DNA of 64,000 nt, taken from positions 14,510,001 to 14,574,000 of the forward strand of contig OZ076409.1 in assembly GCA_964187785.1 (NCBI GenBank), read 5' to 3'. The position numbers and the translations under genes were made by a program. Shown here piece after piece: positions 1-59,922 of the stretch; positions within the stretch are counted from its first letter, which is position 1, and each line of letters begins with the position of its first letter. The notes under the pieces are model-generated. The model worked only from the letters and a program-made list of their open reading frames with translations. It made no database searches and had not been told where the DNA came from. The stretch comes from Amphiscolops sp. MND2022. Taxonomy: Eukaryota.

Positions 1-2
1 CT

Positions 3-629
3 AGTATCGTTAAGACAGTTTCTAATTTACCTAATGACAAAAACTAAAGTCAATTTAGTTTAGAACCTGTTACGCAAAGCGCCTTCGGTGAAGGTAATCC
101 AAATTTATTCACAATTAACCCTACTAATCCCCAACAAGTATTAATTAAAGGTTCAACGATGACTTTCCAGAATGATAACACGTATAATTTAAATGATCCC
201 GATCTTCAATATTTTATGACTAATACACAAACAGATAAAGAAATACAAAACGAGAATCTAATTCATTCTTTTCTGAATGATATGAAATATAATTTAAATT
301 ATGGAGATAAAAAATCAAAGAGATATTATTTTATTAAAGATTTGATTAATCAATATAAGTATAGTGAGATCCCTTATCGAGAGATCCCTTATCGAGACTC
401 CCCATGGGGAAGTGGATTAAATTTTGTTTTTCTTCCATCTGATCTTAATGAACTTGTAGATCAATTAAAACTACTTTATTTTGAAAAAGTAGGAGGAAAT
501 GATAACCCTATGCTTAATGAACAAATTATAGCAATTGCAGATAAATTATTACAGTACCAATGCATTACAACAAATCAACATCAAAACATTCTTTCAGCTT
601 TTACTAAAAAGGATCAGTTTGTGGATTAA
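3..629 (+). pseudogene. Polinton-associated hypothetical protein, C-terminal part (ORF track 159..629)
   Basis: C-terminal GSG-x-FLPSDxNELVDQLKLL...GN..NEQIIAIADKLL resembles a motif common in Polinton/adintovirus ORFs. The frame stays open upstream of 159 except for one TAA at 45-47. Confidence 0.6.
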
Positions 630-682
630 AGGTTTTATACTCCGGATTAGATTCATTACATATTTTTTTACCTACTCCCATT

Positions 683-1606
683 TTAATCTTCTAACCTATT
701 TATTAATAAATAGTTGTATTTTTCTTTCCATGCCTCTCTGCACAATTCCTTGAATTCGTCATAAGACATATCAAAACCAGCTATGTCTCTATAAATGTGT
801 TCTACATCTTTCAATGTTTGTTGAAATAAAATTATGATATTACTATTGTTTCTAATTGTTCTTTTAGGTAAATCAAAGTATGACTGTGATAAATAATAAA
901 CATCTAAATCGTTATGTCTTCCCCTAGTAAAAAATGGATCTATTAATTTCTGTGAAGTGTCCAACATATCATCAAATACAACACAACAATTTTGAAAATC
1001 TTGAATACTTCTGTCTTCTAGATCTTCTTCCACTGAAACATCTTCTATTTCAATTTTATTGTATTGTTCCGGACTCCTCGTAATGATACATATCTTTTGT
1101 TCAGGATTATCTAAGCGAATTAATTGTAATTTGTTTAATAACAAATGGGTCTTACCACAAAATGATGGGCCAACTATCAATGTCCTATTACAATTATTAT
1201 CAATTTGATTATTATTATCATCAATTTGATTATTATGATTTTCATTATCATCATCAATTTGATTTTCATTATCATCATCAATTTGATTATTATCAATTTG
1301 ATTATTATCATCATCAATTTGATTTTCATTATCATCGTCAATTTGATTATTATTTAAATAATATACATCTTCTAATAAATTAATACATCTTTTTAAATGT
1401 TTTGATAAATAAGTTTCATTGAATTCTTTATTACAGAATTCACATTTTACTTTTTTATTGAAACATTCTATACATGTACTATACAATTTACCATTTCTAT
1501 ATTTGTAGAAATCTGTTTTCAGTATATTGCACACTTTACATCTTTTTTTATTCTCACAATCGGAGCAGACAGATTTTTCATTACTTTTTCCACAAATTAA
1601 ACACAT
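683..1606 (-). CDS. A32/FtsK-HerA-type genome packaging ATPase with N-terminal Cys-rich (zinc-binding) region and Asn/Asp repeat linker
   Basis: Walker A GPSFCGKT, Walker B VVFDDM, FTRGRH arginine-finger motif, SQSYF, IRNN. N-terminal CxxC pairs and a CxxC...HxxxC unit. Confidence 0.9.
   Translation of the reverse strand: MCLICGKSNEKSVCSDCENKKRCKVCNILKTDFYKYRNGKLYSTCIECFNKKVKCEFCNKEFNETYLSKHLKRCINLLEDVYYLNNNQIDDDNENQIDDDNNQIDNNQIDDDNENQIDDDNENHNNQIDDNNNQIDNNCNRTLIVGPSFCGKTHLLLNKLQLIRLDNPEQKICIITRSPEQYNKIEIEDVSVEEDLEDRSIQDFQNCCVVFDDMLDTSQKLIDPFFTRGRHNDLDVYYLSQSYFDLPKRTIRNNSNIIILFQQTLKDVEHIYRDIAGFDMSYDEFKELCREAWKEKYNYLLINRLED
1187..1355 (-). repeat. Coding minisatellite (NNQIDDD-type units) inside ATPase 1
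   Basis: About 8 imperfect copies of atcatcaatttgatt on the + strand, with frame kept. Confidence 0.9.
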
Positions 1607-1629
1607 CTTTTATTTAGTAAAAAATCACT

Positions 1630-1726
1630 AAATCACTAAGCAAATTCACTAAGGGTTTATCTTTTTAAGTGTAACATGTTTGCTTAGTGACAAAAAAATG
1701 CTCTTAGTGAATTTGCTTAGTGATTT
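1630..1726. promoter_or_regulatory. Perfect 24-bp inverted repeat with CACTAAG iterons between the two ATPase genes
   Basis: aaatcactaagcaaattcactaag (1630-1653) and cttagtgaatttgcttagtgattt (1703-1726). The structure is seen directly; the regulatory role is inferred. Confidence 0.6.
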
Positions 1727-1763
1727 TACTAAGAAAATTACTAAGAAATCAAACCCATTATTT

Positions 1764-2792
1764 TTATTTTAAACTATTTGTAATGCTAGATTTACCGTAA
1801 TTAATTGCTTGTTCCATTATTATATTCTTGAAATCTTCTTTAAGTTTATCTGAAATTAGTGGTTGTTGCATTCTATCGATGTAGTTGTCTATTTTAGATT
1901 CATTTACTTTAATTTTATTTTGTTTACAATAATATACATAATAAAAAGCTACATTAAAAGGTGTTATTCCAATTGTTTGATCTGACATATCTTCTAGGAA
2001 TATTTTAAGTTTGTTGTATTCTTCACCTGTAAAGAAATAACTTTCATATTTTACATAATCCTCAGGACTCCATTTATGTTTAGTTGTATCGTAGGTTAGT
2101 TGGTATTTGTGGTTGAGTATTTTATACTTTTGTGATCTAGTATCAAATTCAATTACACCAAATTCTAACTGACTACGATATTGTTTCCATTTGAGATCTT
2201 CTTTGATTGAATAAGTTTGTATTATGGTTTCAAAGAAACTATCTGGATTATTTATTGTGATATATAATTTAAAACAATTCTCTCTCACTATTGGGAGAAC
2301 ATCCTTTGCATAGTGAGCAAGGTATATAACTTGTATATTATTGTGTCTACCAAACCGAAATAAGTCTTCTTCTTTTGTTCTGAGTTGTTTGAATGCACCT
2401 GCATCATCTAGTATAATTGTTGTATTAGCAAGTGATTCAATACCTATTTTTTCTAACTGCAACAAAGGTATATAATTATCTTTAAACTCACTTTCATCTC
2501 TACCGAATACTATAAAATCGTTTTTAGTTTGATCTAAATAATACTTAAGGAAACTAGTCTTACCTGATCCACTAGTACCATAAATTAACATATGACAGTT
2601 TGTATTTGTATTTGGTGAAGTAAGTTCTTGTTCTTCTTCTTTGTTAGTTAAATGAGAATGTTTAAATCCTTTAAATTGTTTTAGTTTTTGGTTTAATTTT
2701 TTATAATAATTAGGTCTAATATAATACCAATACACCCACAAAATTATAATAAAAATTACACACAATAAACCTATATAAAATTTTTTATTCAT
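1764..2792 (-). CDS. Second A32/FtsK-like P-loop ATPase with N-terminal transmembrane helix
   Basis: FYIGLLCVIFIIILWVYWYYI at the N-terminus; Walker A GTSGSGKT, Walker B IILDDAG, FRFGRH, VREN. Confidence 0.85.
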   Translation of the reverse strand: MNKKFYIGLLCVIFIIILWVYWYYIRPNYYKKLNQKLKQFKGFKHSHLTNKEEEQELTSPNTNTNCHMLIYGTSGSGKTSFLKYYLDQTKNDFIVFGRDESEFKDNYIPLLQLEKIGIESLANTTIILDDAGAFKQLRTKEEDLFRFGRHNNIQVIYLAHYAKDVLPIVRENCFKLYITINNPDSFFETIIQTYSIKEDLKWKQYRSQLEFGVIEFDTRSQKYKILNHKYQLTYDTTKHKWSPEDYVKYESYFFTGEEYNKLKIFLEDMSDQTIGITPFNVAFYYVYYCKQNKIKVNESKIDNYIDRMQQPLISDKLKEDFKNIIMEQAINYGKSSITNSLK

Positions 2793-2806
2793 TTATTAGG
2801 AAGTAA

Positions 2807-3667
2807 ATGAGTGAAAAGAAGAAAGAAATTGCTAAAGAAAAATTCTCTCCTGTAATTGAAAAGTTTGATCGTATTAAAATAATTCCCCATTATAAAGATG
2901 AGTGTTGGAGTATTGATTTGATAGACAGATCTAGCTTATCAAAATATAATAAAAACTACAAGTTTATTTTTACAATAATTGATTACCATACTAAATATGC
3001 ATGGGCGATTCCCCTCAAAGATAAATCAGGAAAAAGTACAACTACTGCATTAAAAGGTCTCATTGAAAAAGAGAAGAGAAAACCACACAAAATATGGAGT
3101 GATAGAGGTAAAGAATTTTACAACACAACATTTTTACACTATTTAATAGAGCAAAACATTCAAATTTATTCAACCCATTCAGATTTGAAGGCTGTTTTTG
3201 TTGAACGTTTCAAAGGAACACTTCTGGACTTAATTAAGGAACCAATGTATATTGAGGGTAAAGCTTGTTGGTTGAATCACATTAATAATGCTTTGGATAA
3301 GTATAATAATCGTGTTCATGGAACAACAAAAATGACACCATTTGAAATGGTTTCCAATACTAATAAAATTAATAATATTAAAATTAATAAAAATGAAAAA
3401 TTACCCAAATTGCAAGTGGGAGACTATGTGAGAGTTCCTGATAAACGCAATTTATATAGTAAAGTTTATACAACAAATTGGAATAGAGAATTTTTCAAAA
3501 TACATAAAATTAATCCAACTAACCCAGTTACGTATGGTTTAGTAGATGAAAACAACGAACAAATAGAAGGAAAATATTATGAACAAGAACATTTAAGAAG
3601 TATATTCAACTTTAAATCTAACAACAAAACGTTAGAAAGTATGAATATTTTCCATCGAAATGAGTAA
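2807..3667 (+). CDS. Retroviral-like (rve) Polinton integrase
   Basis: DDE core: WSIDLID, IWSDRGKEF, FVERF. Also YNNRVH..TKMTP, VGDYVR, TNW..E.F, GKYYEQE. No C-terminal chromodomain visible. Confidence 0.93.
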   Translation: MSEKKKEIAKEKFSPVIEKFDRIKIIPHYKDECWSIDLIDRSSLSKYNKNYKFIFTIIDYHTKYAWAIPLKDKSGKSTTTALKGLIEKEKRKPHKIWSDRGKEFYNTTFLHYLIEQNIQIYSTHSDLKAVFVERFKGTLLDLIKEPMYIEGKACWLNHINNALDKYNNRVHGTTKMTPFEMVSNTNKINNIKINKNEKLPKLQVGDYVRVPDKRNLYSKVYTTNWNREFFKIHKINPTNPVTYGLVDENNEQIEGKYYEQEHLRSIFNFKSNNKTLESMNIFHRNE

Positions 3668-3684
3668 TTATATTTAAATAAATA

Positions 3685-4389
3685 ATGTCAATTCATAAAT
3701 TTGGTTATAGTGCCTAAAGCTTACAAAAAGATAAGATTGAGAATTTAGAAAAAGAATTGGAATCACAAACCAAATTAATCAACATAAAACTTAATGATAT
3801 GCAAAGCACCATAAATGGTATGACTGATAACCTACAAAGTGTACAAGAAATTAATTTTGATGATGGTGAAACCAAGGTAGTAGTCAATGCAAAGTTATTC
3901 TTAGACATAAATAAAAATATAGAAGACTTGAAAATCAACCTGAAATACATAGAACAAGATGTTAAAAATAAATTTTTAGAAAAGAAAAAAGAAATAATTT
4001 TGGATGCTGCCAAGTTAGTAGAAGAACAACAAACCATTTTACGTAATCATTTTGAGAGAAACCTTATTTCAGAATTGGAAAAATGTAAAAATCAAGCAGT
4101 CAAAGATACTATTCAATTACGATACAACAAAGGATTGTTTGATTCATTTGAAAATAAAGACCAAATCTTTAATGAGTACTTATATTTTAGTGATGAAAAC
4201 CTGTTGGAAAAATACGGAAAAGAAATAAAGACATCAGATGGTGTGTATTATTTATCTGATTTAGATTATTCAACGCGAGAAGATATCGTGTATTCCTTAA
4301 AAATAGATGAATACAAAGATATTGTTGACCTTAAATACAGAATGAAACTAACCGATACTGAGATTAATTTTATACTTTTTGAACAATAA
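3685..4389 (+). pseudogene. Polinton hypothetical coiled-coil-rich protein with premature stop
   Basis: ATG at 3685 (MSIHKFGYSA) is in frame with ORF 3757..4389 (which starts on TTG), separated by TAA at 3715-3717. Confidence 0.65.
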
Positions 4390-4496
4390 ACCTTTGGTTT
4401 GGTGTTGGTAAAAGTTGGGAAACCAACTTTTCTGAAAACTAATTTGTAAAATTTAAACTAAATACTTTATAAAATTAAGTTTTTATTTAAAGTTAA

Positions 4497-5018
4497 ATGA
4501 GTGAAAAATTGTACCCATGTTTACAACCAAGTGATAATCTTGATTTGCGATTGAAAGAAATAAATAGTTTTAATAATTCAATTCAAAAAATAAAAGATAT
4601 TCAAAATTTTTATAATCATGAAGCTAAAAAGTATAAAAAGAAATCTAAAATAAATAAAATTATAAACGGTTTAATTCAATCTGTTGATGGAGTTTCAGTA
4701 CTAGCAGTATCATCAACATGTGTCACGTTGAGTGTCACAGAAGTTGGACTTATTGTTGTACCCATCGCGAGTGGTTTTGGTGCAGGTTTATGTATATTCA
4801 GTAAAATTGCTGGAGAGTATCTGAAAAGAAAAGAACAACACAATATTAAAAAATATACTCTTGCTGGTAGAACACTAAATGATTTCTGTAAACTACATTC
4901 GAAATGTTTAGAAGATAATAAAATAGATCTGAATGAATACAACAAATTAAAACAACCATACGATGTGTATAAAAACAATAAAACTAAACTAAATTCTGAG
5001 TTTACTTTTTTAGGATAA
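4497..5018 (+). CDS. Polinton hypothetical protein with central hydrophobic, Gly-rich helical hairpin (possibly membrane-active)
   Basis: TAAATG start; LYP..L..RLKEI N-terminus; hydrophobic GVSVLAVSSTCVTLSVTEVGLIVVPIASGFGAGLCIFSKIAG between Lys-rich helices. Confidence 0.7.
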   Translation: MSEKLYPCLQPSDNLDLRLKEINSFNNSIQKIKDIQNFYNHEAKKYKKKSKINKIINGLIQSVDGVSVLAVSSTCVTLSVTEVGLIVVPIASGFGAGLCIFSKIAGEYLKRKEQHNIKKYTLAGRTLNDFCKLHSKCLEDNKIDLNEYNKLKQPYDVYKNNKTKLNSEFTFLG

Positions 5019-5079
5019 ATATCTTAAGTAAAAATAGAATCAGTATAAAATTTAAATCCTAATTTTTATTCCTATTTAA

Positions 5080-6307
5080 ATGGAAATATTTTCATTGAAA
5101 AACAAACATGCTATGGATAAACCTATTCATAAAATTGATTTTATTAAATATAGTCCAAGTAGTTTAGCTACAATCAACAATAATTATTCAAATATTTCCA
5201 TCATCTTCCCAAGAGAAGATGCATATATTTGTTTACAAAACTCATATATATCATTAGAATATGAAGTTCTTAAAAATGATGATACAAGATATGCAGATGG
5301 TGATCAAATAAGCTTGGTTAACTTTGGACCCGTTGCTTTATTTAGTGAAGCTAAGTTAACTACTAGTTCGGGCAAGCATTTAGAAAAAGTTGATAATCTA
5401 CACCCCATTTCATTGATGTACAAACTTTTAACATCTAATCAACAAACAAGTCAATTGATGTATGGGTTTGAAGAATCACAAGCAACTAGAAGACAAGAAC
5501 TAACAAACAATAAAACAGAAAAAGGAACCTTTTTGTTAGAATAAAACTGAAAGACTTGTTCGGATTTGCTGATCAAGAAAAAAATTTTATGGATTGGGTT
5601 ACAGTCTCACATTAAAACGTAATAATAATAATGATCCTATTATCAGGGACAATGGTGTGGATGCTGCAAAAATAAATATAAAAGACATCTCCTGGTACAT
5701 TCCACACTACACACCATCAATGGAAAACCAACAACTCGTGATGGATCAAATAATAGACAAAGATCCAACTGAATTATATTACATGGAACGGATTGTATTT
5801 AGAAAAGATGTTAACACGAATAACAATTGGACATTTGAATTAGGTAATAGTGGCGAATCAACACCAAGTTTTATAATTGTTGCTTTTCAAGCTAGAAATA
5901 AAATTGATTCACAAACACATGATAATGCAATATTTGATCGTTTGCCTGTTTCAAATGCAGTTTGTAAAATAGTATCAGAAAAATATCCCGATGATGGAAT
6001 AGAATGTGATTATGATAGAGACAAATATGATCAAGCATACAGTGAAATTGAAAACTTCAATTTGTTAAAAAGTGAAACTAATCTACTCAATCCATTTATT
6101 GATTTACACAAATTCAGAATAAATTACAATTTTAATGTATTTGATTTATCCAAACAAAAAGATAATATTGCCAGTCAACCTATTAGATTAGAATTTAAAT
6201 TTAATGCTGCCATTGATGTAGCAGATTATATAGCTTATGCCGTAGTCCTAACACCTAAACTGATAAGTATCAATAGTGATGGACAAAGGCATTTTGATTT
6301 ATTATAA
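5080..6307 (+). pseudogene. Double-jelly-roll major capsid protein (Polinton PY/hexon), frameshifted
   Basis: ORFs 5080..5544 and 5594..6307 join through a third-frame segment VRIKLKDLFGFADQEK. Frameshifts fall at the T-run 5530-5534 and near 5578-5588. Motifs ALFSEAKL, ISWYIPH, P.FIIVAFQ, YP, VFDLSKQ resemble Polinton MCPs. Confidence 0.8.
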
Positions 6308-6465
6308 GCAAAGCTCTTTCAGTAAATAAATATAATATAAACATATTAATACAGCTTTGCTGATATGATAAATAAATTTATAAAATAATATATTTATTTT
6401 TATAAAATGATAATATAATAATATATTTATTTTTATATAATGATAATATAATAATATTTTTATTT

Positions 6466-6860
6466 TTATAAAACATGTGCTCGATCACTTATCAACTTCA
6501 CAAGTTGTTGATGGGTGAGTGCTTGTTTCCAATACCAAACAATCCAATATATTTCTTCATCTGTTTTATTTATAGTTAATTCTTTATAATACAAACCAAT
6601 TAATTTCAAACAATATATACAAGGACAATCGCCTTTTTGAGTGTAATTTTCCCATGGTAAACTTTGTATTGGATTTATATACAAACGTTTATCGTCAAAA
6701 GGATTCAAACACAACTTAGGTTGTTTTTCAACTGTAAGGTTGTGTAAATTAGATCTAATTGATATATTTGTAGAACTTGATGTTTCTGAATTAAACAATG
6801 AATTTTTGTAGTGTTCACATTTGGGAGCTTTTTGTATTCCTTTTTGTTTCGCTTTTTGAA

Positions 6861-6948
<88 letters not shown>

Positions 6949-9900
6949 GTAACTAAAAGAATATGACTTTGATCGTAATGCTGTGAAGGTATCTAACACC
7001 AAAACTGGACTTGTTTCAATTTTTATTTTTCCTATAACTTTCTTGTTAAAAGGATTATATAATTCATGCGATTTATCCAATTCACTGAAATCAAATTCAT
7101 CTTTATTTTGTTGTAAAAAGTTTATTAGTTCTTGGTGGCTTGTATCAAAACTATCAGTATCCATGTAGTGTAGTTGTACTTTATTTTGCCAATATGATTG
7201 TAATTTGTTATAATAAAATTCATACATTAATAGTTTTGATAGTTCTAAAACTGTAAAACCTAAATAAATTGGTTTATCAAAGACTGTTTTTTCTTTATCA
7301 AACTTGTACACACTAAACTTAGAATAATGATCCACAATGCCTTTGAAACTTAACTTGGATTGTCTTTTTATTATTTGATCTATTTGAGAATGATCAATGA
7401 ATTCTAGATTGGTTCTATCTCTTACATTTTCCATTGTCTTACCAAAGAAAGCATTGTTCATTAATTAATAAAGATCCTTTTCAACGTTTGATTTCGCTAC
7501 TGTGCGTTTCTGAGTATTATGATCGAAATATTTACCTAACCATGGACTTTGTTTAAACTTATAAATAGTATGTATCTTCGTTACTTTCATCCCTTGGTTA
7601 AGATAAAACTTGAACATCCTATAATGTATCATATATTTCGATTTATTGGTTACATCACACATAGGTTTTGATGTTGGTTTGTAATTAGGTTGATTTACAT
7701 TATTCATATAACCTGAGAATAAGTTTGGATCTGCTTTTGTTTGATACGGACAAAAAGGAAAGTTTTTTGTTTTTTCTTTAATTTCAACAGGATATTCTAA
7801 ATCACATTCTATGAAGAATCCATATTCATTATCGTCTGGAATAAATCTTAAATCTGCTACTATTTGTTCTAGTTCATTATCTTCTGGAAAATTTAATTTT
7901 TCAAATTCACCAATAGGAAGATATTGACTCATTGCCCATCCATACAAATTATTTGCATCGATATATAAGATTTGTTTATTCTCATCAGATTGCACATGCC
8001 TATTACCCATAACACTTGAAATTCCTCCACGTATATTGTTTTCTAAAAGTAATAATAATTCTTTACATTTTATATAATCTAATTTAATATTAGTCAACTT
8101 CAATCCTGCTTTCCATGTATAACCAGGTAGAGAGTAACTATACAAAGGATTAATTTTATATTCTCGTGTAGAACTTTCCACAAAGTTTTCAAATACATCA
8201 GCTAATTGAAGAACATCCATTTTTAAATATAACATAGTTAAATCTTGTCCGTTCTTCATATAATTTTTATCAATTATTTCTTGGGTTCTTTTTATATCAT
8301 CATCTGATGGATAAGATTGTGTTAATGTTGACCAATAATCTTCTTTGGTTAGATTTAATGGTTCCTGAAAGTTATCAATATTTAAGTATTCATATAGATA
8401 AACTAATTTCTTTTTGAATAAATCATCACTCATTCGTTCCAATTTCATGATAGGAAAATTGTCTAAACTCTTAACTAATTTATCTAAACTGGAAGAAAGA
8501 AATCGGTATGAGTCTAAGAATCTCAAACAACCTACTTGTACACTAACATAATTTTCCAGTGATTTTGGAATTATCGTTGGATTATAATTTTGATTGTATG
8601 CTTCGGTTAAAAGTTCTTCAAGTATAAGATGACAATCATACCCCGAAAAGTTGTGGAAAAATATAGGAATAAAACTTGATGACCTTTGTTTACAATTTAT
8701 GTTACATATATTATGAGCTGCTCCTCTGTATTTTCCTGTTAGATGATCATGATCTCTAACCTTAGTATTATCGAGTGGATTTTCACAAAGCCAACACTCT
8801 TCTGCAAGTTGAAATTGTACTTCTTCTTCTTGACTCATTTCTAATTCTAAATTTGTTTTAAAATATTTTGATGCAATTTTTACTAAAGTCAACATTCTAT
8901 TTACAAACCACGTGGTACAATCTATTCCAAACTATGAATAGTAATAATTTCCGAATGGTGAAATTACATAATATCCTACTGCAATTGGAATTTGTTTGAA
9001 TAACACGTTGGGGGTATTTTGAGGTTGATTGATACATTCAAAATCTGCATATACTCTTCTTGGTACAGGAACTTTCATATGATAATCTTCGAACTTTAAC
9101 TGATCCTTCCAACTGAATGTGATTTTAGTTGGTTGTTGTTTTATACATCTTTCCATATGATCAATAAGAACTGGTTGTGAACTAAATGCTGTTAAACATC
9201 TTCTACATACATGTTTCATATGTGAATCTTTATTTATTAGACAATGCAACCTTGTTATTAGACAATAGTGATTTTGATATAATAATAAATCTATTTGTGG
9301 TTGTAAGTAATTTTTGTTAACGTGGATTGGTGTTAAAACATTTCCAGTGAGTTCAAATACATTTATATTTAAATTATTTAGGTTTTCGAACTTGGGAATA
9401 TCTTTAACTTTCATAGGGAACTCTAATCCTTTCAGGTTGAGTTTATTTAAATGAATAATATATTTTGATATTCTATCTTTATGATTCTCAACTGGATACA
9501 ACTGGGCTAAAATACACCATAAAAAACAATATTGATCATTATTCTTTATATTTATGATTGATTTATTATCCCTATATTTTCCTGGTAATTCAATATATGA
9601 TGAAGCTTGAAATAACTTTATATATTTCTAAAATAACTTCATCTATTTCTTGAAACACAAAACCTGATCCTTCTAATTGTTCATCATCTAATTTCTGCAT
9701 TAATGTGTTATGAGTATCTTGTTGTGTGTTGTTATACGTTAGATTTGATTTTATCCATCTTTTAAATACTTCTTTTTCTCCATTGACTATTTTTGAAAAT
9801 TTAGCTAGATAACTCAATTGATATTTATATCGGGGAAAATAATTTTTACTAAGTAATTCATTTATATGATCTTCGAGATTACTAGTTGGATTTATTTTAA

Positions 9901-10243
9901 GTTTAATGTATGTATTTTCATTCATAATTATTTCTACTCCATTACCGAAATTTTGCATGTTTTCCCGTTGACGGTTTTGTAAATGAATTTCACTTTGGAA
10001 ATGTCTTGTTGTATCAGATATATATTTACTACAATCTTCACACCAAACACGTCGTTGTTCGGTTTTATTTTTATGTTCATCTGAACTTAAATGAGAAATT
10101 TTATCTGAGATAGGCATATATAAATTACATTTTTTACAATAATATTGATCTAATTTTTCAAGATGTTTTACTGATTTTAAATGATCAGACTTGAAAACTT
10201 TTTTATAATTTAAATTACAAATACTACAATTCTCCATTTCCAT
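6466..10243 (-). pseudogene. polB: Protein-primed family B DNA polymerase with N-terminal zinc fingers and endonuclease VII-like insert; disrupted
   Basis: Exo motifs VYADFE, FHNFSGYD, YLKMDV; pol motifs YIDANNLYG, (K>*)LMNNAFFGK, YMDTDSF; EndoVII-like CWLC...DHDHLTGKYRGAAHNICN. Frameshift near 9612, TAG at 8932-8934, TAA at 7465-7467. Confidence 0.95.
6862..6948 (-). repeat. (AAT)28 AAC microsatellite encoding 29 Asn inside polB
   Basis: 87-bp att run, in frame. Confidence 0.97.
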
Positions 10244-10249
10244 TTATTA

Positions 10250-11093
10250 AAGAAAAAATAGTTTAATTAAAAATTTTTCAATAATAATTTTTCAAAAAAT
10301 TGGTGAAAAAATAATTTAATTTTGTGGGTTCAATAAAATTTTCTATTTGTAAAATGTGTGACTTGTTATTGTCTATAACTTTGTTCTCCTGTATCATTGC
10401 GCTGCGATAAACCAGTTTCGAGAAAATTGAGAAAAACCCAATTTTTACACCTGTTTTGATAGGTGGTAATTAGTGGGTTGATTTTAGAGAAAACATTCAT
10501 TGACAAAATTTGTGTAACTTTTAATTAACTACAACTTTTGTTTCTGTGAATTTTGTCTAAAAACATTTCCCGTTGAGATATTAAACAAAATATGTTTCCC
10601 CCATGTATTAAGATTAGGAATGAACTTTTTCTATATTTAGATTTAAAAATTTTTCCGAGATATTTGTATCGGTTTTTTCAAATTTCAGATTTTTATATCG
10701 GTTTTTTCATTTGTCTCGGAAAATTCATATGTCTCGAAAAATTCAACAAGTGACGTTCCACTTGATGTTATTTCAATACCATGTGTTTCCACTTGAATGC
10801 TACTTTCATTCCAAAAATTTTTGCTTCACAAATTTTCTCTATTACCATCCATGGCAACATAGAGGTTAGTGAATTTTTGCTTCATGACAAAGTTTTCCAC
10901 TGGAAAAATTTGTGCATCGATTTTTATTTTGTTAAATTTTCAGTTGTGAAAAATAACTAATTTTAGATGATTTCCCTTGGTTATTTTTTAACAGTTAGTT
11001 GTGAAAAAAACGTTGATTTTTGTTTCAAAAAATAATCAACATTTTTTAAAAAAATATATTTGACTGGTCCGAATCGGGAATTCGTATACTACT
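10250..11093. repeat. Putative right terminal inverted repeat region of the Polinton
   Basis: Non-coding, ends in ACTACT; the next 6 bp (GACAAC) are the predicted TSD. The partner TIR is outside the window, so the inner boundary is unknown. Confidence 0.6.
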
Positions 11094-11325
11094 GACAACT
11101 CAAACTCTCAATATGAAGATGGCCAGAACGAAGACCTGAACTCACTCTCATTTTTCTCTTTTCACTCTATTCTTAAAAATGAAAAGATCTTGGGTTAGCG
11201 GCCATCTTGGCTACGAAAATTGCGAATCACGAGTTCATATCACTAAAAGTCTTGGAAACTTTCCACGACTTTTGATTTTTTTTTCAGAAAAACAAGGAAT
11301 TTCTCAGAAAAAAACAAGCTGTGTA

Positions 11326-11918
11326 TTTTTGGTCGGCGCTTCATGAATTGAAACGCGACTACAATAGTGACTCTTTTTCTTTCAATCCACACCAACTGAC
11401 CAAAATAGTTCTACAAGTTCTACAAAATTTTATGAGGCCGAATTATACCATTTGGCCTTGGGAACTGAATCATAAGAGTTGTCCCTTTTATTTAGCGTAA
11501 CATACAATACCGGACGAGAGTAAATGATACCCTTTTCATTTTTCGCCCTTGTGAGACTTTTTTTGAAAAAATATTTATTGTCTCCAAAGGGTCCTCCTTC
11601 AATTTTCTGCTATTTTGCAACAGAAGGGATGTTGAAAAAGTTCAGAGTCCTCCCTTTACATTCTTTGGCACTATGAGACTGTTCAAAATTCTCAAGTTTT
11701 GTTTCTTTCGAAAATTTTAAATTTTTTCAAAGGGTTCCCCTTCATTTTTTTGATATTTTGCAACAGAATGTACGGTAAAAAAAATCTCTGAGGGTCCGTC
11801 AATTCGGACTCTTTTCGGTTTTTCGGGTACTGTGGAAGAGAATACTTCACGCTTTGAAGTCCTTTCGCTATTTTTGGACTTTAAGTGCAGCGCCGACTTA
11901 TTGCGTTCCCGGCTTGTT
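11326..11918 (+). mobile_element. Helentron/DINE-1-like non-autonomous element
   Basis: 5' T-run + GTCGGCGC subterminal repeat; 3' GCGCCGACT followed by a degenerate hairpin and CGGCTTGTT. Confidence 0.7.
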
Positions 11919-11986
11919 ATTGTCTTAAAGTTGATTGTTTGCTTGGTATTTCTGATCAACTACGTCTGGAGTCTACTTTCATACCA

Positions 11987-12457
11987 TTTTTGGTCGGCGC
12001 TTTTCTTAAGAAAAGAGTCGACTATAGTCTTGGCTTTTCGTCAGTGTTTTTAAGACCACCTGAAGTGACCAAAATAGTCTACCAAAAGTTTGAGAAAACA
12101 AAAAAATTTTGAGAAGACGCCAAATTGTACCTGTTAGCCAAAGGAACTGAACCGAAAAGGTTTCCCGCGTAACATACAATACCGGACGAGACCAAAGGGT
12201 ACCCTTTAGTTTTTTTCGGCACTGTGCGACTTTTTTTCCCACCAAAGGATCTCCCCTTCAATTTTTTTGAGTTTTGCAACGGAATGGATGTTGAAAAATC
12301 CTAAAGGGTCCTTCTTTTCAGTTTTTTTTCGGCATTGTTAGACTTTTTTCAAATTTTGATTTTCATAAAAGGTACCAAATTCACCAATACTTTGACATTT
12401 TGAAGTCCTTTTGCTAATTTTGAGCCTTAGATATGGCGCCGACTTGGGCCGTTTGTT
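11987..12457 (+). mobile_element. Helentron/DINE-1-like non-autonomous element
   Basis: tttttGGTCGGCGC ... GGCGCCGACTTGGGCCG; interior similar to the other copies; 3' hairpin partly deleted. Confidence 0.7.
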
Positions 12458-13745
12458 TGGTTTTTAAAATTGCAGTTTTATGCCAACAAGAAAAAACTGT
12501 TGTATATCTAAGAATTTTTTCGAAAAAACCACCTGCTAAAATAATTTGAAATATCATTTATAACCCAGGAATTCCAAAAAAGTTTACAAAAACTCTACTG
12601 TCATGCCGTATAACCACAACAAAAACTGCAAAAAATTTGACACTTGGGACCTAGCATTATATCATGAAAATCATTGAAGATTTGACTTGTGTATATTGTA
12701 TGGATTTTAGTGAGGCTTTATTTTGTTCACACATTTCACAACTGTCAATAAAGAGACTTATGTACAGTTGTCGCTTTCGGTAAGCCATCCATTGCCTTTT
12801 GTTTAAAAGCTCCATTTCAGTTGACTGAACAATGTTGGTCTGAAAACTGTGCCTTAAATCCTGTACTTGAACTTACAGTTCAGAATTACAAACGGGCGTT
12901 TCTGACAACCTCTAGAATTAATGATTTAAACATTGTTGGTTCAGAAAGGCGGGAACTCCCTCAAGAGAATACAATTTAATGACAACAAGCTTGTCAGCTT
13001 TTCGACAAATATTTTTGTTTTTGCTACCGATGAAAACAAAGAGACAAAGCAAAACCAGAACAAACGTACGTTTAACATATGCAATAACAATTTTTTTGAT
13101 TGTTTTAATGCTCAAACATGCATAAATGTTCCAAATGGATGTGAAACCGCTGAAAGATGTTTGATGTCAGTGAAAACACCAAGCTTTTATGTTTTGTTTC
13201 ATTTCATGGTTTTCGTTAAGTTGGTTGAAACATTTCCGTTTTTCATGGAAGTTGATTAGTTTAGACTAGCCGTGATCAAAGTCAAGTCGTCGATTCAATC
13301 CTTTAAAAAGTATTTCAAAAATGATGAAATCTAAGGTATTTATAAGATATTTATAACGCGATAACTCGAGTTGGCGCTTTATCAATTCGGATGAAGCCTT
13401 GTAACGCGAGCACAAAATATTTCCAACCGCGAGGAGCGGCTACTTAAATCTAGACAAAGTGTCTGAACTTTTATTTTCTCGAAAATTTATGATGACTTGT
13501 GGCTCAAAAATCGACTAGACAGGCGATAAAAAGGCGTCATATCTCCAAATTCAGGTACCTTAGCAATTGTTATTGCATTGGTATTCTTCAAGTAGGGATT
13601 TTTTGACAGCGTAGTTTATTCGATCACTGTGATTCATTCCGCGTGAGTGACCAAAATTTTTCATGCTTCGGTTGTTTTTTTTTGGCGGGAAACTTTCCAG
13701 CTGATGTCAAAAATTGGATGCCTCTTTGCTGGGTGACATTTTTGA

Positions 13746-15078: not shown

Positions 15079-15191
15079 ATTTTAATTTGATGGTTGATAA
15101 CGACGCTCAGTGCATAGGGTGACGATTTCTCAATCATTGAGAAATCGTCACCCTATGCACTGAGCGTCGTTATCAATCATCAAATTAAAAT
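15079..15191. repeat. Near-perfect 113-bp palindrome
   Basis: 56-bp arms around C15135 with a single G/T mismatch. Confidence 0.95.
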
Positions 15192-15754: not shown

Positions 15755-17347
15755 TTAAATATTTTTATTTTTTCCATCGATTTGTTTTTGACATCCCTGG
15801 TGAAATCTGGCAATGCAGTAATATTTAATTTAAGTATGTGATTTGATGAGAAATGCATATATAGTTCATCATTACTGTTAGTTTTTTATTTGAAACCGAA
15901 AAATTCCTACCAAGTTTTAGCGTGGTTCTTCTTTTCAGCAAGTTTCTCCATCTATTTCTGGATGGAACAACTGAATAGCTGGGAAAGTACTTGTTGATAG
16001 GCCCAGGGACAAAGTTTGAAAGCAGGAGGTTGAGTGTTCGCATCCCTCTCGGGCAGAAATTTTCTAATGTTTGCAAAGCTACTTGGCTAGATGATTAAAA
16101 CACAAGGCTGAGAAGCAAATGTATGAGGATTCGAATCCCCCTGGAGAATTTCAAGCTTCCAAATTGAACTATACTAATGGCGGTTTCTGAAACAACATGT
16201 AATCGAAAGAAAAAGCCTTGTAACCGGTTCATTGATGCTTTGACCGAATTATATGAGGTCTTCCGAAGAAAAGGCAAGGGATTTCGATTATGAATAGTTC
16301 CATTAGGTGTTTTTCAAAATGATTTATAACAGTCGTTGTGATATATTATATTATTCAAAAATCTCTATACCCAGAAAACAGACGTTGCACCCAAATCACC
16401 ATAAAAAGTATGGCGGGCATTCGAATCTTACATATTTCGATTTTATGTTTTTTTCCAAAGGAAATTTTGAAAAATCGTTTTTCAACAAAATAAATTTATA
16501 AAAAGGCCTAATATCCGAACTACTGACGTTATTTCCCAATTTTATTAGATCCTTTCAGGTACAGACCAAAGAAAACAGGTATTTTCAGCCAACCCTATAC
16601 AAACATTTAAGTGGAAGATGTTTTATTCAAAAAGGGCACTCCTCCAATTTTGAAAAAAAACATTCCGAAATTCCGAAATTTTGCAGTTTTTTGAAATTGA
16701 CATAAAAGCTTTGATAATAACCTTGATAATTGCTCTCTGATTAGGCTCAGAGATTTTGAAACTTCGAAGTGATAATTGAAAATGAAAAGTCATTTTCAAT
16801 TTTTGACACAGTTCTTCGTTTATTCTTCAAAACTTGACTATTGCATCTCTAAAAACACTTCAGATGACATGACAGTTTTTAGGTTCTTTATCATTCACTT
16901 TTTCACCAAAGGTTACTCAATTGCCTGATACTGTTTTTACAACAACAATGGTAAATCCTCCCAAGGTGGATTAGTTCAATCCTGAAAATTTCAAAAGATT
17001 GCGCTTCTTTTTGTAACGAAGTCAGTGGGTCTGATGTCCTCTGCAGAAATGAAAAAAAAACACCATTTAACTGAAATAATTCGCTATTTTTAGTCTTTGT
17101 GCTACTGAGACTAGAAGCTAACCCTCGAAAATTGTTTCATTGTTTGTTATCTTCCTTCCATAAAAACCATTATACTGCTGCTTTTAAAGAATTTAACAAT
17201 GAAAAATCCGTAATGGCTAGACTATATTTCGGACTGTTTTATTGATGAAAAGATGCCTTTTTCGATTGAAAACCAGGAAAAATTTGATGGCATGGCTTTG
17301 AATTAATTCATTTCGAGTAAGTTTTTGATGGTTTCAAATAAACGTTG

Positions 17348-17990
17348 AACAAGCCGGGAACGGCCCTAGTCGACGCCCAGCCGACATTCAAGGGTTAAAA
17401 AAACAAGTTTTTTTAAATAAGCAAAGGCGCACTGCTGTGACATTTTATCAAATTTACAGAGCCGGAAAATACGCTAAGGGATGCTCATGACACTGGAAAA
17501 TCGCTTTTTCCCTGACTGGAAACATCGAAAAAATTCTTCGGAAAAAAGTCTCACAGTGCCGAAAAGGCTCAAAAAACGCCGAAAAGATTTATGAAAATAT
17601 AGGGGGTACCCTTTGACCAAATGGGAATTTTTTGAAGAAAAGTCGCACAGTTCCAAAAAACGTTCGTCTTTTCCACAAGCATTGACGAAACTCGTCAGTT
17701 CCACAGGACCAAAAAACAATCAGTGAAGAGGTTACAGCCAGGACTCAGAAAAAGGAAAACCTCAAAAAATGAAAAAAAAATATTTGGGAAATTTTTTCGA
17801 TTTCAAGAATTTCTTCGATAAGTCGCAATGTGCTGAAAAAACCTAAAGTACTCTCTATGCGCGCAAAACGTTTTTTTTGTGCCAAAAATCAATGATAAGG
17901 GCGTCGGTTCTAAATCTTCAGAAAACATTTTTTTGTTCACACGTTACTTTTGAGAGCATTAAGAATTTTGGTTAAGTGCGAGACTTGAAC
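17348..17990 (-). mobile_element. Helentron-like element, partial
   Basis: AACAAGCCGGGAACGGCCCTAGTCGACGCC terminus. Other end not found, so the right boundary is approximate. Confidence 0.5.
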
Positions 17991-18411
17991 CTACACACTC
18001 CTGCTTCTCAGACCTCGTCTTTCGGAAATCAGAGTCAACTTCTAGAACCAATGGCAATGAGTGACGAAGTTATAGAAATGCTTACAAAAATTTGTCAGTT
18101 CGCTCTAGACGTGCACCGGACCGTTATAAGACAAATGGACAGGCTTGATTTGAGCTGGATACAGGCCGGAAAAACATATCTGAAAAGTCCACTTTTCGAC
18201 ATGCTTGTAGCCTAAGAACTGAAGTGTATACCCAAAGAGGCCACAGAATCTCCTCCAATGCTTTCATAATTTCAAATTTTACGGAGGGTACAAACTGGAT
18301 GAGACCAAAATGCCACTATGTAAATTTCCAGCAATATGCGGCAATTTTTGAAAGTTTTCTTCCAACCCCCCAAAAGAGCCCGCTGGTAAATTTTTGAAAG
18401 TTCCAATAAGA

Positions 18412-19160
18412 AACAAGCCGGGAACTGCCCAAGTCGGTGCAACGGTTAAGAACAGTAAAAAAATCGAATATGCAAAAGAACACTTTTGTTAAAATTTCAT
18501 CAATACAGTGCCAAAAAATACCTCAAGCGATACGCATAAGACTCGAAAACGCCAGTTGGCCCAACTGAAGACTTTCAAAAAACAAAAAAAACGAGGAAAA
18601 AAGTTCCTGAAATTTCGAAAAAATGATAAAGGTCTCCGGTAAGTCGCATAATGTCGGAAATCATAAGAAAACCTGTATGCTCGCAAAACGTTTCGTTTCT
18701 AGTAAAAATTGAGGGGCTTTGACAAGGCAAAATAGAAAAAGTCACATGGAAAAAACGTTGGCATTAAAAAAATAAAATTCGTATATAGTGTGCTGAGAAA
18801 ACCTAATTTTAAGACCGGTATTAGACATTTTAGACATTTTAAAAAATCTCACAATGCCGACAATTGTAAAAGGGAGACCCTTAGGGCTTTTTGAATATCC
18901 AATTTGATGCAAATATCAGAAAAATTAAAGGAAGGACCCTTTCGAGACATTAGTTTGCAATGCTCGAAAAAGTTTCTGGGTGAAGAAGGGACTCGAACGC
19001 GCAACCGCTGGGTTCACCCTAAACCGATTGGTAAAAATTACAAGTTAGTAAGCAAGAGCTTATAAAGCTCATGAAATCTGTCAGTTCGATGGACTTAAAA
19101 ATGAAAAAAAGCAAAGTCATTACTATAGTCAGCTTTTTCTACGGAAGCGCCAACTAAAAA
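18412..19160 (-). mobile_element. Helentron/DINE-1-like non-autonomous element
   Basis: AACAAGCCGGGAACTGCCCAAGTCGGTGC ... GAAGCGCCAACTAAAAA. Confidence 0.7.
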
Positions 19161-25258: not shown

Positions 25259-25464
25259 TGTGGTAGGTGCTAACATTACATAACCTAAAGCTTATGTGAG
25301 AAAAGCAATAGTGTGAAATACTTTATTACGTAACATAGTAACAACCTGCCAAATTATGCCAAAGTGGCAAAATAACAACAATTGCCATAAATCAGAATAC
25401 CGTTGAATTTACAGTTGCTATCATATTCTTCTTTACTTCCACTCCTGAGTCGTAGACGTTTACA
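25259..25464 (+). repeat. 5' LTR
   Basis: TGTGGTAGG...GTTTACA, identical to 30441-30646. Confidence 0.98.
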
Positions 25465-27038
25465 TGGCGCTGCGAGCAGCTGACGATGATCAATCAAATG
25501 CCCCAGTCCCTGGACTGAGTTACTTCTGGCAAGATGCCGAAAAATCCCCTTCATACGACTGGGATCAATGGCTGCAACTATTTGAGGTAGCAGTGTTGGC
25601 CCGTCACTCAATTTCTGTTTCCGAATTGACAAGAAATGCAGAACAACAACCCCGGGCCCAAGCACTGATGGGAAACATGGAGGAAGCCCCTGCAGCAAGA
25701 AAGGTAATCAGCTTATTGTACATATCATTGGGAAAAACGGGCAGAAAAATGCTCATGGATAAGTTCCCCCAGATTAATATCTTACTGATCCAATTACAAC
25801 AATTCCTCCAATTTTGCAACGAGTGTTTCCAAATACGTCGAAACAGAACGATGGACAGACATACCTTCTTGTCGCGAAAACAGAAGCCATCGGAATCACT
25901 ACACCAGTACTGGAACGTCCTCAATGGATTAGCAGCCAAATGTGACTTTGGTAACCAAACAGAAGGCTTGGTGTACGATGTGTTTGTACTGAATATGGCA
26001 AATAAGCAGGTACAGGAGAAGCTGTGCACAGAGCCGAAAGAGACCCCGGCAGAGGCATTACAGTTCGCCATAGCATTTGAAGACGGATTTAAAAGACAGA
26101 GAACATATGGCTACATCGGAAACGAGACGAAAATTAAAGAAGAACCAGTTTGTGCAATAAGTGGTAATCGACAGAACACAAAAGAATGCTGGAGATGCGG
26201 TGCCGGTAATTTTACAATGGACCACTTGAAATTCTGTAAAGGACCAAATGCGACATGTAATTACTGCAGCAGAAAAGGCCACTTGGAGAAAGTTTGTAAC
26301 CAAAAGAAAAAGGATAAATTACAGCAAAGTGGTAGATTCAGAGCAAGTGGCAGTAGTGAACAAATAAACCGCCGCGTTCGATTGGTCGACCAGGGAGAAG
26401 AAGAGGATGACGATAATTTCTTGGTTTTGAATATAGATGGCCAAAGCGAAAACGTAAAACCGTACTACATGGAAGGGTTTATTAACGGAAATCGCTTCAA
26501 AACAATGATCGACTCAGGTTCGCCAGTAACCATTTTTGCGCTAGATGAAATTAAACAGATCATGCAAAGAGAAAAATTACAAGTGCGTCAAATGATCAAA
26601 GGCGAACGGTACGTGGACTTCAACGGGAAGCCGTTGAACTTACTGGGATACGTTTTCTGCGAATTACAAGTGGGGGACCAATACATTAAAAAGGCAAGAA
26701 TTCTAGTCACAAAGAGCCGTACAAAATCGATCATCGGCAGAGAATGGTTGTCAACGTTGAAATATACAATTGCCCCAGCTAACAAAGGTGAGTGTGAAGT
26801 TAATTCAATTGAAAAAGAAGAAGAACTAAGTACGGAAACCAAGCAATTTTGTAATGATTTTCCACAACTGTTCAAAAGAAATGGGAAGATAAAAGATCAT
26901 GAAATCAAAATAAAGCTAAAATCGGACGCAAAAAATCACGCAACAAAAAGGGAGACGAATCCCGATCCAACTACAAAACGCGGTAGATGCGGAAATAAAA
27001 CGATTACTAAAAGAAGGCCATATAGAAAAAATCAATGA
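25464..27038 (+). CDS. gag: Gag (two zinc knuckles) + aspartic protease; goes out of frame at about 26935
   Basis: CWRC...H...C and CNYCSRKGHLEKVC; protease MIDSGS and IIGREWL. Confidence 0.93.
   Translation: MALRAADDDQSNAPVPGLSYFWQDAEKSPSYDWDQWLQLFEVAVLARHSISVSELTRNAEQQPRAQALMGNMEEAPAARKVISLLYISLGKTGRKMLMDKFPQINILLIQLQQFLQFCNECFQIRRNRTMDRHTFLSRKQKPSESLHQYWNVLNGLAAKCDFGNQTEGLVYDVFVLNMANKQVQEKLCTEPKETPAEALQFAIAFEDGFKRQRTYGYIGNETKIKEEPVCAISGNRQNTKECWRCGAGNFTMDHLKFCKGPNATCNYCSRKGHLEKVCNQKKKDKLQQSGRFRASGSSEQINRRVRLVDQGEEEDDDNFLVLNIDGQSENVKPYYMEGFINGNRFKTMIDSGSPVTIFALDEIKQIMQREKLQVRQMIKGERYVDFNGKPLNLLGYVFCELQVGDQYIKKARILVTKSRTKSIIGREWLSTLKYTIAPANKGECEVNSIEKEEELSTETKQFCNDFPQLFKRNGKIKDHEIKIKLKSDAKNHATKRETNPDPTTKRGRCGNKTITKRRPYRKNQ
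25465..25479 (+). promoter_or_regulatory. Primer binding site, probably tRNA-Ser
   Basis: TGGCGCTGCGAGCAG directly after the LTR; complementary to a ...CTGCTCGCAGCGCCA tRNA end resembling tRNA-Ser. Confidence 0.8.
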
Positions 27039-39883: not shown

Positions 39884-39917
39884 TTCAATTGATAACTATC
39901 CGTTTCGTTTGCCATTT

Positions 39918-59872: not shown

Positions 59873-59908
59873 ATGTAAGCTATTGTGTTCTTTTATCAGT
59901 TAAACTGA

Positions 59909-59922
59909 TACTGACTGCGCCA
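59909..59922 (-). promoter_or_regulatory. Primer binding site, probably tRNA-Ser
   Basis: TGGCGCAGTCAGTA immediately after the 5' LTR. Confidence 0.75.

Follow-up and report, generated by a model that had tools for sequence, protein, structure and literature searches.

A decayed Polinton/Maverick copy of a divergent, Alpha-adintovirus-like lineage carrying a second A32-type ATPase with a predicted membrane anchor

Gene content and limits of the element

Positions 1–11,093 of the window (the whole 64,000-nt stretch of DNA analysed) are the right-hand part (~11 kb) of an integrated copy of a Polinton/Maverick, a known kind of virus-like transposon. The core set comprised an rve integrase, a pPolB in four ORFs, a broken double-jelly-roll capsid gene and two A32-type ATPases. 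A first-pass annotation had described an endogenous, capsid-encoding Polinton/adintovirus-like element in a gene-dense, intronless block, a description confirmed by these genes together with one terminus. The gene block (1–10,243) was 94% coding with intergenic gaps of 14–158 nt, and had a GC content of 26.7% vs. 36.7% in the remainder of the window; as judged from DNA, the reading frames seen were interrupted by stops or frameshifts and not by introns. The left window edge cuts the element inside an ORF. The flanking DNA contained only Gypsy and LINE elements, and an Rfam search returned no matches. The following features were assigned:

3..629, plus strand: 3' portion of an ORF conserved among Polintons, open to the left, with an in-frame stop at 45–47
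683..1606, minus strand: ATPase 1, a canonical A32-type packaging ATPase (core, Pox_A32 E 1.4e-4)
1630..1726, no strand: inverted repeat of 35 nt in the gap between the ATPase genes, with several CACTAA/TTAGTG words
1764..2792, minus strand: ATPase 2, an uninterrupted ORF of 342 aa (Pox_A32 E 5e-9)
2807..3667, plus strand: rve (retrovirus-like) integrase (Pfam rve E 7.7e-10, above the curated cut-off)
3685..4389, plus strand: probable fibre/spike-type minor virion protein with a coiled-coil N-terminus and an in-frame stop at 3715–3717
4497..5018, plus strand: uninterrupted membrane protein of 173 aa with a central hydrophobic segment
5080..6307, plus strand: double-jelly-roll capsid gene (PF21738), broken
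6380..6478, no strand: AT-rich tandem repeat of three 33-nt copies with AATAAA words, in the gap where the capsid and polymerase genes converge
6466..10243, minus strand: pPolB with vOTU and EndoVII motifs, broken into four ORFs
10244..11093, no strand: non-coding right terminal region, a candidate terminal inverted repeat, ending in ACTACT at 11088–11093
11094..11099, plus strand: putative right-hand copy of a target-site duplication of 6 bp, inferred from sequence

The earlier assignments of the integrase and the ATPases were borne out by the Pfam matches given above, and those of pPolB and the capsid by comparison with relatives. The pPolB pieces aligned to three full-length pPolBs from IMG/VR over 940–1069 residues (33–35% identity, E ≤ 1e-140), and the OTU Cys/His, Exo and Pol motifs were present. 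The C-terminal piece of the capsid matched PF21738 (E 2.5e-13). An intact natural sibling, P0183, was modelled with a pLDDT of 87.6, and the model matched the PBCV-1 capsid (Z 26.4, rmsd 3.3, 353 aligned residues), the faustovirus MCP (Z 24.6) and Sputnik (Z 22.0). ATPase 1 has an N-terminal zinc-finger region (zf-C2HC_2, E 1.9e-6) and an Asn/Asp-rich repeat linker, and it terminates early compared with the ATPases of its relatives.

Three ORFs listed as unknown in the first pass are indeed present, but they have counterparts in the nearest full-context relatives, the IMG/VR contigs L001, L008 and L011. In these, the homologue of the leftmost ORF, which we take to be 'PZ-like', sits just upstream of the capsid gene (phmmer E 6e-8 with L011 and 3e-6 with L008; profile E 3.9e-7); it had no Pfam match. 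Homologues of the membrane protein occur in the same three contigs (profile E 5.7e-10), and it had 276 database matches, with the hydrophobic segment kept in 119 of 120 among the matches listed. It may possibly correspond to the SLATT-like gene reported in adintoviruses, although SLATT_1 was matched at only E 0.22 in 2 of 11 family members, and its Atlas matches were nameless or weak, with recognition below threshold. Because neither this protein nor the leftmost ORF had a PDB sequence match below E 0.2, the SLATT and GasderminX labels are unproven. The first seven residues of 3685..4389 resemble the M-x-x-D/N-x-F-G starts of fibre/F5-8-lectin genes (L001, L008, L011, L013), which weakly suggests a fibre/spike-type minor virion protein; otherwise, this ORF had no significant sequence match.

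The right end is of the (ACT)2 type and lies at a step in GC content, with the change point at 11,046–11,082 and ACTACT within ~10–50 nt of it. Polinton ends carry the motif 5'-(AGT)2//(ACT)2-3' (PMC8097293). ACTACT alone was a weak signal, with 27 matches in the window vs. 18 expected; the left end lies outside the window. The inverted repeat between the ATPase genes had a DNA fold z of −4.97, equalled in none of 200 shuffles, and is a possible regulatory site.

Most genes are broken by stops or frameshifts, and the copy in the window is dead and decayed. Sequencing error is unlikely as the only cause, since there are several in-frame stops, but is possible for the frameshifts.

The penton and cysteine protease had been noted as not in the window, either lying to the left or missing, and in agreement with this a six-frame search of the whole window (2749 peptides) gave no match to penton, protease, PLA2 or pX profiles at E ≤ 1. 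These profiles were built from 7 penton, 7 protease, 4 PLA2 and 4 pX proteins from IMG/VR, and as a control, profiles of two other genes (3 proteins each) did recover their window homologues. The absence of the four genes from 11 kb could indicate a derivative that has lost penton and protease, forms no ordinary icosahedral virions and instead uses the anchored ATPase to move DNA, naked or coated with capsid protein, across membranes; a few adintoviruses are without a detectable penton (PMC11071296). We regard this as very unlikely. The window edge cuts a gene whose upstream neighbours in L008 and L011, in line with it, include penton and pX, and typical lengths of 13–25 kb leave room for them (bioRxiv 2023.08.22.554363). 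The capsid was also full length in 93 of 120 siblings among the matches listed, and the fibre-like gene was kept. Since L001, L008 and L011 all have penton, protease, PLA2 and pX, the penton, protease and PLA2 genes probably lie to the left of the window.

Lineage, relatives and copy number

The element is group-2 (Alpha-adintovirus-like) in type and belongs to a divergent lineage. Group-2 Maverick-Polintons, or Alpha adintoviruses (Mayetiola class; family Eupolintoviridae, class Polintoviricetes), include Spodoptera Mavericks 1 and 2. They share with the element a pPolB with OTU and EndoVII-like domains, an rve integrase, an A32 ATPase and a capsid of ~400 aa; the window's nearest full-context relatives, like the Spodoptera elements, encode PLA2, a penton, a protease and an integrase with a chromodomain (PMC5803895; PMC8502044). 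In contrast to Alpha adintoviruses, the element has an anchored second ATPase, an ATPase 1 with a zinc-finger N-terminus, capsid and polymerase genes that converge, and an integrase without a chromodomain. Alphadintovirus-type membership as described by Starrett/Buck involves an Alpha PolB (pfam03175/bidnavirus-like), a Mayetiola-recognisable hexon (reciprocal BLASTP), PLA2X, a chromodomain integrase and an animal host. PF03175 was not matched by the window pieces (E ≤ 0.1) or by three relatives (E ≤ 0.001). The integrase in the window had no Chromo match and no matching C-terminal tail in three frames, and a C-terminal chromodomain is typical of adintovirus integrases (Buck et al.; PMC11071296); for this reason the element was filed as Alpha-like and not as a member of Alphadintovirus. 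The EndoVII domain is common to the window pPolB and the Spodoptera Mavericks, which are classed under Alpha, and a Beta class for the EndoVII-bearing polymerase was dropped on the basis of the Spodoptera Maverick gene table. An animal host would follow from the known host range (bioRxiv 2026.06.19.733378).

The IMG/VR contigs L001/L003, L008/L025 and L011 are unclassified Polintons with PF21738 capsids. L001, L008 and L011 share with the window the capsid, ATPase 1, pPolB (33–35%), the membrane protein and the leftmost ORF, and an integrase homologue is found in L001 and L011; however, the capsid is only 26–30% identical to these relatives, and the contigs have one ATPase each, without anchor, and a different gene order. 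Close relatives of the capsid were absent from IMG/VR (piece and alignment scans) and from JGI metagenomes, those of a pPolB piece were absent from the IMG/VR scan, and none were found in prokaryotic genomes or phage records.

Both proposed phylogenies were run. The capsid branched apart from its IMG/VR relatives with an SH-aLRT of 97 (quick tree), and the window pPolB formed a long branch and was left unplaced in a tree that left out L001 and L005 (duplicates or near-duplicates) and L023 (too short). The first pass had suggested that gene order may define a distinct lineage. Among the sequences compared, a distinct lineage was supported by the capsid tree, by the long pPolB branch and by an order unlike that of all three full-context relatives, with named adintovirus references compared by description only, but gene order is labile in these elements. 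The best marker of the lineage is the second, membrane-anchored ATPase.

Database matches indicate a high-copy family of hundreds of copies. Clusters matched numbered 276 for the membrane protein, 1162 for the capsid piece and 340 for ATPase 2; all 120 matches listed per search were ENA proteins, on contigs of 323 distinct sizes, and individual 90% clusters contain as many as 278 members. The genes travel together, as same-sized contigs were shared by membrane protein and capsid in 20 cases, by ATPase 2 and capsid in 8 and by ATPase 2 and membrane protein in 7, against a null mean of about 0.02.

The membrane-anchored second ATPase

ATPase 2 consists of a transmembrane helix (residues 7–25), a linker, an A32/FtsK-HerA core (56–234) and a helical C-terminal extension of ~100 aa. 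The core was compact and modelled with a pLDDT of 75–89, while the C-terminal 100 residues were below 50. Its best fold match was STIV2 B204 (Z 14.5, rmsd 2.9, 164 aligned residues), followed by VirB4, HerA, TcpA and FtsK (Z 11–13; TcpA 11.7, FtsK 11.1), and the fold is also shared with TrwB (Z 9.9). Among the matches listed, Walker A was kept in 110 of 120 siblings, Walker B in 110 of 120 and GRH in 116 of 120.

The anchor, scored as a 19-residue segment with a hydropathy of at least 1.8 in the best 120 of 340 clusters, was kept in 95 of the 100 siblings scorable with a full N-terminus and absent in 5; the other 20 were left unscored (11 start near Walker A and 9 were without a motif match). 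It was kept across two subfamilies whose ATPase 2 proteins are ~65% identical, the segment itself being 42% identical in the second subfamily. This conservation ruled out that the anchor arose by chance read-through. The C-flank was more positive than the N-flank in 94 of 95 siblings, and by the positive-inside rule the more positive flank faces the cytosol, which places the ATPase domain in the cytosol. FtsK and conjugative coupling proteins combine an N-terminal membrane anchor with a motor in the cytosol. The modelled ATPase 2 follows this pattern, with an N-terminal anchor, an FtsK/HerA ATPase fold and intact motifs, but differs from FtsK, TcpA/TrwB and B204 in its compact A32-type core of ~180 residues, 11–19% identity, single helix and occurrence in a eukaryotic element.

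The orthologue of the relatives' packaging ATPase is ATPase 1 and not ATPase 2: ATPase 1 matched the ATPases of L001, L007, L008 and L011 with E 1e-28 to 4e-35 and grouped with them in the tree (98/99). None of 23 related contigs carried two ATPases, and no relative of ATPase 2 was found in the IMG/VR or JGI metagenome scans. Polintons are very widespread and their accessory genes variable (PMC11131425), so that the element could represent an already catalogued family with the second ATPase as a known accessory gene. We consider this improbable, given that the best viral-structure matches to the capsid were ≤15% identical and that no transmembrane or second ATPase was described for a Polinton in the portions of the literature consulted.

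In intact copies, following established Polinton biology, the protein-primed polymerase would copy the element from its ends, the rve integrase would re-insert the copies, and ATPase 1 could package them into the jelly-roll capsid. ATPase 2 might then form an active ring motor of the FtsK/HerA type, held in a host membrane with the ATPase domain facing the cytosol. Together with the small membrane protein encoded beside the capsid gene, it would act in genome packaging or exit, either as a DNA translocase bound to the membrane or as an anchor at the assembly site. This role, drawn from sequence and the predicted fold, is put forward tentatively, at somewhat less than even chances.

Alternatively, ATPase 2 could have been captured from another virus and function as an accessory NTPase in host manipulation or regulation, without taking part in moving the genome. 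Giant viruses carry extra A32-type paralogues, and the nearest predicted-structure matches, at 12–21% identity, were giant-virus and virophage proteins described as A32-like or 'P-loop NTPase'. ATPase 2 was also not sister to ATPase 1 in the tree, where its own position was unsupported (branch 3.1), and it diverges faster between the subfamilies (about 65% identity) than the capsid (about 83%) or the membrane protein (about 82%). However, the core has a compact fold of the packaging type and keeps every catalytic motif, and ATPase 2 was retained in both subfamilies; we hold the accessory role to be unlikely, though worth considering next to that of an anchored motor.

Gene starts and the life cycle of the family

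The word TAAATG was present at 5 of 7 gene starts vs. 23 of 402 ATGs, and the other 18 of these 23 sites in the element lie away from gene starts. The enrichment was also seen against AT-matched ATGs (15 of 128; P 4e-4) and against ORFs in AT-rich IMG/VR loci (7 of 86; Fisher p 3e-4), but the pattern was noticed by eye, post hoc and in one copy, with p about 0.02 after a 64-fold correction. TAAAT occurred within 12 nt of all 7 gene starts (background 42 of 402). T-runs upstream of TAAAT (4 of 7 vs. 19 of 134) were too weak for use. The contigs L001/L003, L008/L025 and L011 had TAAATG at none of 40 ORF starts, and the parts of the literature consulted contained no report of TAAATG starts in a Polinton. 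The arrangement resembles the TAAAT initiators of vaccinia intermediate/late genes and the TAAAN initiators of yeast pGKL, in that TAAAT overlaps or just precedes the ATG; unlike those systems, the element has no RNA polymerase gene in the part seen. Whether TAAAT(G) genuinely acts in cis as the point from which compact transcripts with almost no leader start appears to us an evenly balanced question.

TAAAT is the vaccinia intermediate/late initiator (PMC6211774), and such starts could mark a helper-dependent, virophage-like Polinton in which a pox-like cytoplasmic virus RNA polymerase reads TAAAT, assembly takes place on helper factory membranes, and the anchored ATPase recruits or packages the genome. 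The starts of ATPase 2 and the integrase, on opposite strands, are separated by 14 nt; in L019, an unrelated element from IMG/VR, 5 of 5 long ORFs have TAAATG at their start; and Mavericks-related elements are described from entomopoxvirus occlusion bodies (PMC11296320). On the other hand, AATAAA words after 4 of 8 genes fit nuclear Pol II processing, integration requires nuclear access, L001 has a similarly tight head-to-head ATPase arrangement without TAAATG, and such words are common in AT-rich DNA. A helper-dependent life cycle therefore seems rather unlikely to us.

Overall, we consider it reasonably probable that the window holds a decayed copy of a high-copy Polinton/Maverick, with a family-wide anchored second ATPase in a translocase or assembly-anchor role and with genes that start at a cis-signal. 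A bolder version, to which we give little credence, is that of a massively amplified animal Polinton lineage with a membrane-coupled life cycle, in which pox-type initiators are read by a cytoplasmic helper virus and an anchored FtsK-like motor packages or exports the genome at factory or ER membranes. If true, the particles would possibly have an inner membrane, and the lineage would live in an animal germ line as an endogenous, virophage-like parasite of a pox-like virus.

Maverick-Polinton virions have yet to be observed (bioRxiv 2026.06.19.733378). The anchored motor and the candidate start signal offer two concrete handles on the transcription, assembly and cell exit of these elements, through the cellular location of ATPase 2 and the possible presence of poxvirus-style 5' poly(A) leaders; if neither handle held, the element would represent a further divergent family of Polintons whose accessory gene is unusual.

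Gene content and right end of the element

The first-pass annotation had read window positions 1–11093 as a gene-dense Polinton block with integrase, pPolB, ATPases and a DJR capsid, and all of these were recovered:

3–629, +, gene 1, homologue of the capsid-upstream gene in IMG/VR relatives, open at the window edge
683–1606, −, gene 2, ATPase 1, zinc fingers and A32 ATPase
1764–2792, −, gene 3, ATPase 2, with N-terminal hydrophobic helix
2807–3667, +, gene 4, rve integrase (E 7.7e-10)
3685–4389, +, gene 5, product probably fibre-like (N-terminal motif only)
4497–5018, +, gene 6, membrane protein
5080–6307, +, gene 7, capsid (PF21738)
6466–10243, −, gene 8, pPolB with vOTU motifs and EndoVII insertion

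The coding share was 94% over positions 1–10243, with intergenic gaps of 14–158 nt. An intact natural capsid sibling from another copy of the family (P0183) was modelled with high confidence (pLDDT 87.6), and the model fitted the PBCV-1 capsid (Z 26.4, rmsd 3.3, 353 aligned); identity of the capsid to viral structures was at most 15% in all 50 matches listed. The window copy is defective, since genes 1, 5 and 8 contained in-frame stops, gene 2 ended early, and the capsid and pPolB genes carried two frameshifts each. In this copy, a zinc-finger region (1367–1606) was joined in frame to ATPase 1, which also contained an in-frame low-complexity Asn/Asp-rich repeat (1190–1360); a similar in-frame expansion of ~30 Asn codons lay within pPolB (6865–6950).

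The left end lies beyond the window, and only the right part of the element was read. GC content was 26.7% over 1–11093 vs. 36.7% for the rest of the window, with the best change point at 11046–11082. The right terminus was ACTACT (11088–11093), a 3' end motif type known from vertebrate Mavericks (PMC8097293). The hexamer occurred 27 times within the window; it counts as an end signal through its position at the GC step, not by itself. Copies of a dispersed family of host repeats, themselves containing sub-repeats, were present in both orientations (11326–12470, 17340–18550, 32939–34314, 41350–42170 and 52400–53700); one begins ~230 nt beyond the right terminus of the Polinton. Host DNA also held a near-perfect 56-nt palindromic hairpin (15079–15191; 98%, 1-nt loop). 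A Gypsy-type LTR retrotransposon with long gag and pol ORFs (25259–30646) is a very recent insertion, as its 206-nt terminal repeats were 100% identical. A second Gypsy-type element (54142–60108, −) had 189-nt repeats 97% identical and pol in several pieces, and an unbroken 1084-aa non-LTR reverse transcriptase ORF occupied 36641–39895 (−; RVT_1 E 5e-43).

The second ATPase

ATPase 1 clustered with the packaging ATPases of relatives (support 98/99); ATPase 2 lay on a branch of length 3.1, where grouping with any neighbour lacked support. The best fold match of the ATPase 2 model (core pLDDT 75–89, C-terminal 100 residues poor) was STIV2 B204 (Z 14.5, rmsd 2.9, 164 aligned), followed by VirB4, HerA, TcpA and FtsK, and further matches, 12–21% identical, were A32-like proteins from giant viruses and virophages.

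Siblings were scored as the best 120 of 340 clusters. Walker A was matched in 111 of these, at residue 55 or later in 100, of which 95 kept an upstream 19-residue segment of hydropathy at least 1.8. Because identity of this anchor segment to that of the window copy was 75% in one subfamily (n = 33) and 42% in the other (n = 67), its hydrophobicity rather than its sequence is conserved. The C-flank was more positive in 94 of the 95 siblings with the segment, implying, by the positive-inside rule, that the ATPase domain is cytosolic. Walker A, Walker B and GRH motifs were retained in 110, 110 and 116 of the 120 listed siblings, respectively, and an invariant His held the position of the usual sensor Gln. 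That ATPase 2 is an accessory NTPase seems rather unlikely.

The comparison covered 23 IMG/VR contigs (25 loci) that carry a related pPolB or capsid, 11 of them end to end. A single ATPase was present on 19, the other four were partial and had none, and no contig had two; no ATG-based ATPase ORF on them had a membrane anchor. Pattern scans of IMG/VR and JGI, reaching close relatives only, returned no ATPase 2 relatives. Polintons as such are widespread and have been described in detail. Across open-access papers and the main texts of preprints, with Repbase outside this scope, neither an A32 ATPase that is a second one or membrane-anchored nor TAAATG starts were found in any Polinton; the literature covered includes PMC11131425, PMC11071296, PMC11296320, PMC12451622, PMC6431247 and bioRxiv 2025.02.07.637071 and 2026.10.13.758929. 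Given these negatives and their scope, an already catalogued family is improbable.

Family, relatives and genes absent from the window

Searches matched 276 (membrane protein), 1162 (capsid piece) and 340 (ATPase 2) protein clusters, from one or more assemblies. The best 120 matches per search were all ENA proteins, 61–96% identical, spread over 323 distinctly sized contigs (median 220 kb), the largest single clusters listed having up to 278 members. The three genes belong together, because their pairs had 20, 8 and 7 same-sized contigs in common vs. a null of ~0.02. Products were full-length in 93 (capsid), 92 (ATPase 2) and 108 (membrane protein) of the best 120 each, a ranked rather than random sample. 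The family comprised two subfamilies, between which capsids were ~83% and ATPase 2 ~65% identical.

The reported absence of penton and cysteine protease from the window was borne out: profiles from IMG/VR pentons (n = 7), proteases (n = 7), PLA2 (n = 4) and pX (n = 4) matched 0 of 2749 six-frame peptides of the whole window, and control profiles recovered genes 1 and 6 in the same search. All four genes were present in each of the nearest relatives with context, IMG/VR contigs L001, L008 and L011 (capsids about 26–30% identical to the element's); L008 and L011 have their penton and pX upstream of the gene 1 homologue, on the same strand. Because these relatives carry both genes, with the penton preceding gene 1 in two, we infer that penton and protease are likelier to lie left of the window than to be lost. 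A penton-less derivative is unlikely, slightly more so than dependence on a helper virus; these readings overlap with each other and with those of an accessory NTPase and a catalogued family.

Spodoptera Mavericks combine an EndoVII-bearing pPolB, PLA2 and a chromodomain integrase (PMC5803895), and Starrett et al. (PMC8502044) list them with the Alpha PolB type. Since the element's IMG/VR relatives fit the same make-up, it appears Alpha/group-2-like in type. It is not filed as an Alpha member, because, unlike in those Mavericks, the integrase of the window copy (2807–3667) lacked a chromodomain, PF03175 matched neither the window pPolB pieces nor three relatives, and the named references were compared by description only. 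The distinct lineage proposed earlier from gene order stood in a quick capsid tree (27 rows), where the family and six relatives formed a clade (SH-aLRT 97) apart from L001, L008 and L011; in the pPolB tree (21 rows) the window sequence was a long branch without placement. Among other IMG/VR Polintons, L019 encoded a protease-integrase-chromodomain fusion (2740–4251; protease E 7e-13, rve E 1.7e-14) and L015 a pPolB ORF of 1842 aa (4475–10003), ~500 aa above its relatives' length.

Candidate start signal and proposed role of ATPase 2

TAAATG stood at 5 of 7 gene starts in this one copy's DNA, and TAAAT within 12 nt of the start in all seven; the same word is the vaccinia intermediate/late initiator (PMC6211774). 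As background, 23 of the element's 402 ATGs stood in TAAATG, and so did 15 of the 128 that follow AT-rich sequence (P 4e-4). Across the other IMG/VR loci, 8 of 191 ORFs began this way, and 7 of 86 where the locus was AT-rich (Fisher p 3e-4). L001, L008 and L011 had TAAATG at 0 of 40 ORF starts; L019 had it at all 5 of its long ORFs and at 2 of its 4 short ones. Several points count against a start signal: the pattern was spotted post hoc (p about 0.02 once corrected 64-fold), 18 of the 23 sites were internal, AATAAA lay behind 4 of 8 genes, and the DNA covered was that of a single copy.

Following described Polinton biology (PMC11071308; bioRxiv 2023.08.22.554363), pPolB would replicate the element, the integrase would insert it and ATPase 1 would package the genome. 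ATPase 2 may, as a tentative reading with somewhat less than an even chance, be a ring motor tethered to a membrane, with the layout of FtsK or conjugative coupling proteins; it would hold or move the genome at a membrane during assembly or exit.
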